This document shows, piece by piece, positions 27,789 to 30,502 of a stretch of 64,000 bases of DNA. The first letter of the stretch is position 1. Every line of letters begins with the position of its first letter. The stretch spans positions 100,716 through 164,715 of IMG/VR virus record IMGVR_UViG_2922727739_000003; one strand, 5' to 3'. The DNA is from a virus. Below the pieces are notes generated by a model. That model saw only the letters and a list, made by a program, of their open reading frames with translations. It was not told the DNA's origin and did no database searches. The position numbers and the translations under genes are program-made.

Positions 27789-28571
27789 ATGAATCGAACT
27801 GTTACCATTGCAATGCCTGTTCGTAATCGTGAGTGGATATTAGATGAATATTTAAAAAGCTTATTGAATTTGAATTATCCTACTAACTTGATTGAATTCA
27901 TATTTGTGATCAATGATTCAACTGATAATTCTTTAAATATACTGAAAAAATTCAAAAAACAGAATAAAGATAAATACAGGAATATTAAAATTGAAGTATA
28001 CAATCGAAATGCTCCAGTTGACAAAAGGGATTTAAACATTAGAAACAACTTCATATATACTCATTTGAGTAAATTACGGAATTATATCATGTCAAAAACT
28101 AAAACTGACTATCTGATGTTTATAGACACAGATATCCTCATTCAACCTGATATCATTAATAATCTACTCAAACATAATAAAGATATCGTATCGGGGTTGA
28201 TATGGAATGGATACGTTGTACGTCCTGAGAAGCCGTATCTATATCCAAACATCATGAAGCTCAATAACAAAGGCTACTTTGAACATATTGTAAACAATCA
28301 GGTGAAGAATGCTCCCCTTGTCTCCTCCCCCACTCTTATGGAAGTTGATTTAACGGGAGCAGTAATTTTGCTAAGTCGTAAAGTCTACAAGTCGGTAAAA
28401 TACGGATTTCATCCGCAAGGCGAGGATGCATACTTTTGTAAAATGGCTCAGAACAAAGGGTTTGAGCTTTTTTGTGATTTAAGTGTGTTTTCGAATCATA
28501 TTATGAGTCCAGAATATTTAAGGGAGTTCTTAAATGAAACAAAAAATAATACTTTATCCACCCACCCTTAA
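27789..28571 (+). CDS. Glycosyltransferase family 2 (GT-A)
   Basis: TIAMPVRNRE, VINDSTD, YLMFIDTD (DxD), GEDAYFC. Confidence 0.9.
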   Translation: MNRTVTIAMPVRNREWILDEYLKSLLNLNYPTNLIEFIFVINDSTDNSLNILKKFKKQNKDKYRNIKIEVYNRNAPVDKRDLNIRNNFIYTHLSKLRNYIMSKTKTDYLMFIDTDILIQPDIINNLLKHNKDIVSGLIWNGYVVRPEKPYLYPNIMKLNNKGYFEHIVNNQVKNAPLVSSPTLMEVDLTGAVILLSRKVYKSVKYGFHPQGEDAYFCKMAQNKGFELFCDLSVFSNHIMSPEYLREFLNETKNNTLSTHP

Positions 28572-29538
28572 CTGGGATTTCCTCACGCAACGTCCCCAAC
28601 AGATTGTTAAGCAATTTGCTCGAAGAGGTTGGACAGTGATTTTTTGTAATAACACTCAATCAGACAAACAGACCGAAGAAGTTGAACCTAATTTATTTGT
28701 CTATCACAATTTCGAAGAAGTACTTAAACTAATTAAGCATAGAAGCATTAAAGTAGATATATTTTATTACACTTGGGCAAAATCGGCTCAATATGTCGAA
28801 GATATAAAAGCAAAGATTAATATTTATGATTCAGTTGATAGTTTTAGTGATTGGTATGAATATGAAGATGATGCCATTAAGAAAGCCGACATTGTGTTAA
28901 CATCTAGTCAGTTTCTGTATGACCTTAGAAGCAAAAGCAGTGAAAGTACATACCTAGTCAGAAATGCTTGTCCAGAATCATATATAAATAAACCCTCACA
29001 AATTCCTGAAGAATATAAAACATTAAATGGCCCAATTGCCCTCTTTTCAGGTGCTATTGGCTCTTGGGTGGATACTCGTCTGATTCGTAAAGTTGCAGAG
29101 AAATATACTACTGTACTTGTGGGGCAAGAGTTTGGCAAGGAATGTCCATCAAACGTTATTAAATTGGGAACCAAGAATCATGACGACCTTTACAACTATT
29201 ATGCTCATGCCGATGTATGTCTCCTTCCCTTCAATACTAAATTGGAAATCACACAAGCAGCATGTGCTATTAAAATGTTCGAACATATGGCTGCGGGTAA
29301 AATCACAGTAGCTACCAAATGGATGGAAACAGAGATTTATGATGAAGCTGTTCTAGTTGCTGATAATGACGATGAATTTTTAGCTCAAGTCGACAAAGCA
29401 ATCCAACATGGAAAAATGGATACCTATAAGGATTTATGCCTTAAACACGCTAAAGAAAATACATGGGAGAAACGTTCTGAACAGATACTTAAAGCCATTA
29501 ATGATTACTGTTTAAAGAGTGGTGTTATACTTGACTAA
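28534..29538 (+). CDS. GT-B glycosyltransferase (GT4/TuaH-like)
   Basis: QRPQQI, IYDSVD, ADIVLTSS, VRNA, ADVCLLPF...IKMFEHMAAGK, NTWEKR. Confidence 0.88.
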   Translation: MKQKIILYPPTLNWDFLTQRPQQIVKQFARRGWTVIFCNNTQSDKQTEEVEPNLFVYHNFEEVLKLIKHRSIKVDIFYYTWAKSAQYVEDIKAKINIYDSVDSFSDWYEYEDDAIKKADIVLTSSQFLYDLRSKSSESTYLVRNACPESYINKPSQIPEEYKTLNGPIALFSGAIGSWVDTRLIRKVAEKYTTVLVGQEFGKECPSNVIKLGTKNHDDLYNYYAHADVCLLPFNTKLEITQAACAIKMFEHMAAGKITVATKWMETEIYDEAVLVADNDDEFLAQVDKAIQHGKMDTYKDLCLKHAKENTWEKRSEQILKAINDYCLKSGVILD

Positions 29539-30502
29539 AAAATTAAAAGTGCTTTTCACAAATAATGCAGCGTTGATCAAGTATGGCATTGCGTCAGGCT
29601 TTAAGAACCTTGGATGTGACACTTATATTATGGATGGTAGATACCAACTGTGGGATAAGTCTAAGGAAGTTCAGAGTGAGTTATTCAAAGAGGTAGTTGA
29701 AAATTATAAACCCGACATTATTTTTTCAGAATGCTTCGCTAACTTTGCTGAAGATATATTTGAACACACTAAAGAAAAAGGCATTTTTCATGCTTATTGG
29801 GCAATCGAAGATACTCCTCATGATCACTGGATAGGTGACTACTGGTCAGACTATGCTGATCACATCTTTACTACCACCGCCGAATGTTTACCAAATTACT
29901 GGAACAAAGGTAAAAAGGCAGAGTTGATGTTATTTGGGTGTAACCCCTCTTTCCACAAGACAGTAACAGCTAAGGCAAGTTATGATATTTCACTAGTAGC
30001 TAATAACTACGAACGAAGATCTAAACAAACGAAAGACTTTATTTTGCCCTTGGTTGAACAAGGATTTGATATATCTATATACGGTAATGATTGGTGGATG
30101 GATAGAAACCGTGAGATAAATTTGGTGAGTCATCCTCATGTATATAAGGGATATAAGGCATACGAAGACCTCCCTCTACTCTACTCTTCTTCAAAAATTA
30201 TCATTGGACAAAACTTAGACGATCATTCTATCACACAAACTTCAATGAGACCCTTTGAAGCAGTAGCCATAGGTGGAGGGATATTTGTGTCCCCGTGGAC
30301 TAAAGCTCAAGAGTACCTGTTTCATGATTTAATATATTTACCTAAGACAACTGACGATATGATTCATATGGTCAAAGAAGTTCTGACCATGACAGATAGA
30401 CAGCGAAAAATCAAAGCAAAAAAAGCACAAAGATTTGTATATAAATATCACAATTACGACATTAGGGCATCACAAGTTGTTGATGCTTATTTTTGTCGTT
30501 AA
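29531..30502 (+). CDS. CgeB-like glycosyltransferase (GT-B)
   Basis: YWAIEDTP, ADHIFTT, GCNPSFH, YSSSKIIIG, MRPFEAVAIG, HNYDIRA. Confidence 0.85.
   Translation: MTKKLKVLFTNNAALIKYGIASGFKNLGCDTYIMDGRYQLWDKSKEVQSELFKEVVENYKPDIIFSECFANFAEDIFEHTKEKGIFHAYWAIEDTPHDHWIGDYWSDYADHIFTTTAECLPNYWNKGKKAELMLFGCNPSFHKTVTAKASYDISLVANNYERRSKQTKDFILPLVEQGFDISIYGNDWWMDRNREINLVSHPHVYKGYKAYEDLPLLYSSSKIIIGQNLDDHSITQTSMRPFEAVAIGGGIFVSPWTKAQEYLFHDLIYLPKTTDDMIHMVKEVLTMTDRQRKIKAKKAQRFVYKYHNYDIRASQVVDAYFCR

Follow-up and report, generated by a model that had tools for sequence, protein, structure and literature searches.

Three overlapping glycosyltransferase (GT) genes lie within the tail operon of an SPbeta-like phage, in a window of 64,000 nucleotides (nt; positions 100,716 to 164,715 of IMG/VR record IMGVR_UViG_2922727739_000003) that forms the right part of a 164.7-kb virus record. 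Our best reading, to which we give a probability of roughly 0.6, is that their products O-glycosylate the virion, most likely its tail tube. Judged by comparison of loci, the genes form what appears to be a real, functional and modular late cassette. An earlier, sequence-only reading of the window had proposed glycosylation of the tail tube or capsid, following the actinobacteriophages, or modification of the host spore surface. Virion glycosylation stands as the best of these, with sequence comparison pointing to the tail rather than the capsid; the acceptor, however, is still a candidate and the enzymes are not homologous to the actinobacteriophage ones.

The cassette and its link to the tail tube gene

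All three GTs are intact, predicted to be soluble and placed between the tail tube gene and a probable tail chaperone gene (Table 1). The overlapping reading frames are where they were first described, sharing 38 nt (GT2/GT4) and 20 nt (GT4/third GT), and the YomO-like gene starts 14 nt past the last GT stop, with its own ribosome-binding site. The upstream gene, taken from the outset for the major tail tube, is confirmed as such by a profile of the SPR tail tube (E 3e-20) and by its model (predicted local distance difference test, pLDDT, 90.7), whose best fold matches are tail tubes. Among the enzyme labels, GT2 is upheld by Pfam (Anp1, 6e-17; Glycos_transf_2, 8e-15). The likeness of the GT4 enzyme (Pfam Glyco_trans_1_2/1_4) to TuaH is weak (NCBIfam, 1e-11, far below the TuaH cut-off), and the name 'CgeB-like' for the third GT reflects PF13524 (4e-16) and overall resemblance, not comparison with Bacillus subtilis CgeB itself. 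Motifs that we take to be catalytic are conserved, namely DTD 113–115 and GED 211–213 in GT2 (DTD/DSD plus GED across 8 aligned GT2s) and K247 and E250 in GT4 (invariant in 11 aligned homologues). A hydropathy scan gave no transmembrane or signal-like stretch in the three GTs (maximum over 19 residues 1.46, 1.07 and 0.89; holin control 1.96), bearing out the predicted lack of signal peptides, and no close homologue of any of them was found in the isolated-phage collection.

A synteny survey, suggested earlier as a check, found the GTs linked to the tail tube gene in 27 distinct elements (three duplicates removed), across which GT2 identity falls to 46% and tube identity to 19%. Among 39 viral loci found with a GT2 profile, all 22 whose GT2 is at least 46% identical sit behind a tube gene, a homing-endonuclease-like gene intervening in 3. 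GT2 likewise lies behind the tube gene in 7/7 genome loci. A scan of 401 genomes of the host family (6 candidates scored per genome) gave, at a cut-off of E 1e-20, 57 matches to the tube and 10 to GT2; the 7 strong ones among the latter all follow a tube. Viral contigs carry the cassette at 13 of 29 tube loci, as found with a tube profile biased toward cassette-bearing loci.

GT2 is constant within the cassette and the downstream GTs are swapped in four combinations: GT4 with the CgeB-like enzyme (18 of the 27), GT4 with a different GT4 (5), GT4 alone (2), and GT8 with GT32 (2); one element adds a methyltransferase. A constant enzyme with exchangeable partners has the look of a glycan assembly line. 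All GTs are under purifying selection: pairwise ratios of nonsynonymous to synonymous substitution (dN/dS; saturated pairs left out) are 0.04–0.21 for GT2 (11 pairs), 0.03–0.14 for GT4 (8) and 0.03–0.09 for the third GT (6), similar to those of the tube (0.04–0.15) and chaperone.

We picture a modular cassette that entered the tail operon behind the terminator of the tail tube gene and ahead of the following tail gene. Its enzymes would assemble a short O-linked glycan on the particle of the phage itself, likeliest on threonines of the tube's outward domain. One enzyme, GT2 or the CgeB-like GT, would prime Thr or Ser and the others would extend or cap the chain, so that swapped GTs would alter the coat. 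Host nucleotide sugars would be used, because no sugar-synthesis gene was found in this genome. If the CgeA/CgeB spore crust is a guide, the coat would most likely serve to make the tail surface hydrophilic and shielded.

Table 1. Features of the cassette and its flanks (window coordinates)
Feature	Position	Strand	Remarks
Major tail tube protein, SPR/SPbeta YomU family, 258 residues	26946..27722	+	Core D1 plus inserted immunoglobulin (Ig)-like D2 (~residues 92-170); candidate glycan acceptor
Terminator-like hairpin 3' of tube gene	27740..27766	+	Also in GT-less relatives; likely partial terminator lowering downstream tail-gene expression
GT2, GT-A fold, Anp1/Mnn9/COLGALT1-like, 260 residues	27789..28571	+	Constant cassette member; predicted priming or core enzyme
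GT4-like, GT-B, weakly TuaH-like, 334 residues	28534..29538	+	Predicted elongating enzyme
CgeB-like (PF13524) glycosyltransferase, 327 residues	29519..30502	+	Exchangeable third member
YomO homologue, 175 residues	30517..31044	+	Probable tail assembly chaperone, by position; follows cassette without terminator

Probable late expression and the tail as proposed target

The sequence-only reading saw no terminator between the GTs and the next tail gene. This holds, but before GT2 a strong terminator-like hairpin had been overlooked (27740–27766; −19.3 kcal/mol, z −3.45, 0/200 shuffles as strong). In a best-window scan across loci, made without shuffle control, 28 of 30 GT-bearing loci have a hairpin of −16 to −22 kcal/mol behind the tube, and every one of the 59 GT-less loci has one of −12 kcal/mol or stronger. 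Its presence in GT-less relatives suggests an ordinary tube-to-chaperone attenuator behind which the cassette was inserted. The GT2 start is mostly within ~25 nt of the T-tract, so close as to leave no room for a promoter of its own, and the DNA upstream of the hairpin is exchanged together with the tube. No strong hairpin separates the last GT from the YomO-like gene in the window (best −8.9 kcal/mol; a pattern scan gave one weak 8-bp candidate at 30465–30488, inside the last GT), and none ends the cassette in the loci scanned (best −3 to −10 kcal/mol).

Any transcript reaching the yomO-like gene must cross the GTs, which would make them late genes at a modest level. The GTs are likely to be late read-through genes, made at a chaperone-like low level from a YonO-type late transcript; the co-expression with tail genes foreseen earlier thus finds support in the layout. 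Of 15 RNA runs listed, none contained half of the query's words, and the four aligned consist of contigs from relatives or of tiny pieces. Upstream of GT2 there is no excess of sporulation promoters in the 22 of 27 loci scanned, where matches to consensus patterns for sigma-K, -E, -G and -F number 0, 0, 1 and 5, against 3.2, 1.7, 7.2 and 3.0 expected from shuffles.

That the tail is favoured over the capsid follows from a chromosomal tail-plus-lysis element in 3 Paenibacillus genomes (G186:C1:4427600-4472700, G004:C4 and G003:C2; L157, L161, L164-L169). It carries holin, amidase, a divergent GT-D, GT2-GT4-GT4', tube, chaperone, tape measure and tail-tip genes, with large fibres and two sigma-factor-like genes, and lies between genes that we presume to be ytfJ-like and dacB-like. 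Terminase, portal and major capsid are absent from the 33 non-GT open reading frames scanned (32 from G186, the tape measure from G004), and several frames of the element match generic 'virion structural protein' families. The GTs show dN/dS of 0.05–0.10 (unsaturated pairs). In a complete provirus, GTs 67–83% identical to these lie 11.5 kb ahead of the tube gene (81% identical), and the terminase and portal genes occupy the interval. The element appears to have lost its head genes by deletion while selection maintained its GTs; their retention after head loss would place the target, if it is a phage protein, in the tail. On this comparison the element is a candidate glycosylated tailocin-like particle, and we found no description of it in the literature searched, in which subscription journals were thinly covered and supplements excluded. 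Many GT-less Paenibacillaceae tube loci (L106-L155) have host-like high third-position GC content (GC3) and no tail-module integrase-like gene, and may be further domesticated tail elements.

Rather tentatively, and at less than even odds, we extend this to a general proposition: phages of spore-forming Bacillota and their headless tail descendants may share an exchangeable tail-glycosylation system, in which a virus-specific GT2 and spore-type GT4/CgeB enzymes would place varied glycans on threonines of the tube's Ig-like domain regardless of tube sequence, creating phage 'glyco-serotypes' and possibly the first glycosylated tailocin-like particles.

The candidate site within the tube is D2, which in the SPR tube protrudes outward as a decoration (PMC11850899, in the part of the article available). 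Threonine in D2 is higher in GT-bearing members of 4/4 tube clades, by 0.027 to 0.076, and gives the strongest contrast of any residue there; 0/5000 within-clade permutations reached this excess, the rows being related to one another. The contrast is absent from the tube core, and Thr alone differed, 1 of 5 residue classes tried in 3 regions. Candidate acceptor threonines in D2 are T101, T113 and T150; at the T113 column, Thr is present in 89% of tubes with GTs and 51% of those without. Total Ser+Thr in D2 does not differ from that of phage-like GT-less tubes (0.196 versus 0.195). We regard the D2 Thr enrichment as a hint of glycosylation.

Several observations weigh against tail-tube glycosylation. 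Glycan, enzyme activity, expression and acceptor are all predictions. Thr falls with GC3 among GT-less tubes (rho −0.41), and D2 Thr is 0.115 in 13 low-GC GT-less tubes versus 0.138 in 27 GT-bearing ones; GC content thus confounds the excess and explains part of it, and the window's own D2 Thr (0.103) is unremarkable. Over 30 loci, tube identity shows no correlation with GT2 identity (rho 0.05), and GT2s that are 85–95% identical follow tubes of 19–30% identity, so no sequence-specific enzyme–tube pairing would exist, and co-variation of enzyme and acceptor is rejected; capsid types are swapped among relatives too. A C-terminal Ser/Thr tag, of the hydroxyl type that we presume for the mycobacteriophage acceptor, was not found on the tubes (a Ser or Thr occurs among the final three residues of 1/26 GT-linked tubes). 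The window capsid ends in Ala, and capsids ending in S/T occur in 12/25 GT-bearing versus 3/7 GT-less phages. The cassette is dispensable, 50 of the 57 tube matches in family genomes having no GT there; unrelated genes also occupy the slot (L004, L138); and homologous GTs lie away from the tube in L216, L242/L246, L252, L254/L257 and L258, making the tube link common, not universal. A host target would fit the headless element too, and its GT–tube adjacency is likely a product of the deletion.

Enzyme kinship and competing explanations

In the literature searched, as far as the available portions of the sources extend, tailed-phage particle glycosylation is shown solely for mycobacteriophages, whose capsid and tube are modified (Che8 gp108-110, Corndog gp36-38, Myrna; Freeman et al. 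2023, via PMC12363180, PMC11600133 and PMC12619734) at a C-terminal acceptor site (PMC12619734), lowering antibody neutralisation. Both systems have tandem, phage-encoded, soluble GTs with or without a methyltransferase and the tail tube as proposed acceptor, and Corndog, like the window, keeps its GTs inside the morphogenesis operon, between portal and protease. The enzymes themselves differ: mycobacteriophage GTs belong to PHROG 4447/1721/854/8858, those of the window, weakly, to 1574/2170. No homology to Che8 gp108-110 or Corndog gp36-38 was detected (hhalign probability 0.1–9%; best hidden Markov model score 11.6 bits, in the DxD region only), and mycobacteriophages do not figure among the tblastn matches of the three GTs. 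Unlike the mycobacteriophage set, the cassette has two GT-B enzymes, a Bacillota host, a tube without C-terminal tag and a predicted glycan. Beyond the GT-A fold the window enzymes are, by sequence, unrelated to the actinobacteriophage ones; by analogy, their mode of action is likely to resemble mycobacteriophage virion glycosylation from outside that family.

As the sequence-only reading had supposed, no description of the cassette, or of glycosylated Bacillota virions, was found in the same literature. If virion glycosylation is true, a second, unrelated enzyme set in phages of soil Bacillota would make it a general, repeatedly evolved trait, and would raise what such a coat serves without an immune host. 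Culturable Paenibacillus lysogens, natural GT-less relatives and four natural cassette variants make it directly testable, and enzymes that apparently tolerate very different tube sequences may help to glycosylate protein nanotubes.

The kinship of the enzymes points to protein as substrate. Solved sequences nearest to GT2 are the protein-glycan enzymes Mnn9 and COLGALT1 (E ~1e-6); set against this, the GT2 fold search is generic for GT-A, its top rows tied at Z 16–17 (middling model, pLDDT 68.8). A gel shift of CgeA with CgeB and UDP-glucose, with Thr112 of this spore-crust protein as the proposed site, is reported in the accessible text of PMC13577073. The nearest cellular CgeB-like genes, also contrary to a tail target, have GT4 homologues beside them, joined by collagen-like genes in 3 of the 10 clusters read; these clusters are probably spore-surface ones (the cellular GT4 context comes from loci found with the CgeB-like profile and from viral contigs). 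Kinship with CgeB/CgeA and the collagen-like clusters supports protein O-glycosylation chemistry and fits virion and spore targets alike.

The same evidence carries the strongest competitor, in which the tail operon merely carries the GTs and their substrate is a surface protein of the host: most likely one of the spore coat or exosporium, or else flagellin. To the collagen-like clusters and the CgeA Thr112 precedent this adds a cellular GT2 relative that adjoins flagellin, the lack of co-variation of the GTs with tube or capsid, and a prophage apparently sitting in what we take to be a spoVK-like gene. The B. subtilis CgeA/CgeB and BclA-type clusters do hold PF13524 and GT4 enzymes of a related kind, and the chemistry that we propose for the phage is also that reported for CgeB (PMC13577073, accessible text), an O-linkage to Thr on a surface protein that forms oligomers. 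Unlike the spore clusters, however, the cassette adjoins no CgeA-like, collagen-like or other spore-surface acceptor gene, its neighbours being tail genes, and the 164.7-kb record has no collagen-like acceptor (no run of at least 5 G-x-x repeats). Besides the missing sporulation-promoter excess, the DNA upstream of the hairpin travels with the tube, and a late lytic transcript would come too late to help a spore. The phage enzymes are also far from cellular ones: the closest cellular CgeB-like and GT4 homologues score E 1e-44 to 1e-47, while phage CgeB-like genes match one another at E 1e-180 or better. A tree built from 33 GT2 domains places the 28 of phage origin apart from the 5 cellular domains (support 100), the cellular sample being small and deep branches among the phage GT2s weakly supported, and an archaeal virus has similar GT2s in its head operon. 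Raised already in the sequence-only reading, the spore surface is thus a weakened alternative, still backed by the cellular GT4/CgeB kin, and we consider it unlikely.

Somewhat less probable again is late action within the infected cell, whether on tube monomers before assembly or on a target outside the virion, blunting a host defence such as tube sensing by DSR2 or altering cell-wall receptors before lysis. In its favour, the SPR tube that triggers DSR2 is of the same family as the window tube, the rapid exchange of tubes is what a conflict would produce, and the phage carries another counter-defence gene, Gad1. DSR2, however, buries D1, and D2, where the Thr signal lies, is disordered and 'may not be recognized' (PMC11850899, available part); this structure weakens masking by a D2 glycan. 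Against the cell-wall variant, membrane partners were not found. The idea that the cassette has no role in the tail and is a passenger tolerated at an insertion hot spot draws on homing endonucleases and unrelated genes in the same slot and on the many tube relatives without a cassette; strong purifying selection, replacement of GTs in place by other GT families and recurrence beside tubes elsewhere render it improbable. Glycosylation of phage DNA, known for other phage GTs (PMC12619734, available part), is very improbable given the late position far from replication genes and the lack of any TET/JBP or hydroxymethylase Pfam match in 91 upstream and 49 window open reading frames, many of them family-less and the short ones unscanned.

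Gtr-type serotype conversion is ruled out. GtrABC cassettes also include a prophage-borne GT2, and the window's GT2 matches PHROG 841 weakly (E 9e-4), but a membrane flippase, bactoprenol GT or membrane transferase was not found in the window, and the cassette lies inside a late operon. The absence of a flippase or GtrA-type partner noted at first is therefore borne out, with no membrane partners beside the soluble GTs.

Other lineages and the phage itself

A GT4 profile found 36 viral loci, of which we read 11 of the more distant, together with 4 of 7 loci of another set. L236, L244 and L245 have capsid, tube and then GT4-CgeB with methyltransferases; L244/L245, from large uncultured phages, add GDP-mannose dehydratase, DegT aminotransferase, acetyltransferase, GT-D and FkbM/TylF methyltransferases, and the L245 cassette closes with a GT2. 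In L047, GT4-GT2 directly precede a tube of the same PHROG. Distant members of the GT2 family (20–34%) occur in head operons of an archaeal virus and uncultured phages (L035-L051, L088) and also in PhiF1, with terminase, portal or capsid neighbours confirmed by PHROG for 4 of 16 loci.

By its layout the phage counts as SPbeta-like, and its closest relatives are in Paenibacillus; named GT2 homologues are mostly from this genus, the closest from P. polymyxa-like strains. It has a YonO homologue (52% identity), MrpR-like, serine recombinase and PolIII-alpha genes (Pfam scan), and homologues of yomZ, yomX, yomV, yomU, yomO and yomM in the order of SPbeta. Flanking genes and order are thus shared with the SPbeta/SPR tail module (yomV-yomU-youA..yomP-yomO-yomM), but where the window has three GTs SPbeta has small tail-accessory genes and no GT, the yomU-yomO slot being filled by youA-yomP, including XkdV/W/X-like genes, so that the gene order given in the sequence-only reading was correct. 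The window tube is 27–35% identical to isolated-phage tubes (best match 35%, among 40 records listed), a distance that makes membership of the genus Spbetavirus unlikely. Among close relatives (L001-L086), at least 5 capsid types and at least 4 tube types are reassorted, while flanking genes stay 80–95% identical.

Upstream of the window, the early region of the same phage encodes a fourth glycosyltransferase (Pfam Branch, GT14-like, E 2e-35; L174:6136-6996, minus strand). The serine recombinase adjoins a 133-residue AAA-lid fragment, which we take to be part of a spoVK-like gene, and an hflX-like gene (L170:1400-3464, L170:8942-9925). This suggests integration in the spoVK-like gene, and the phage encodes its own full-length 327-residue AAA protein of that kind, perhaps a replacement copy. 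An AgrB-like gene adjoins MrpR-like and DndB-like genes (L173:16013-19604), which may form a signalling module of the Agr type; the Pfam scan of the phage recognised no arbitrium genes. The Gad1 anti-Gabija gene is accompanied in the phage by a Ser/Thr protein kinase gene (L173:1324-2223 and L172:18126-19664). Within the tail region of the window, 44421–45075 holds a RelE/ParE-like toxin gene with an overlapping opposite-strand open reading frame, and 51185–51637 encodes a PAAR-motif protein among the tail-tip genes.

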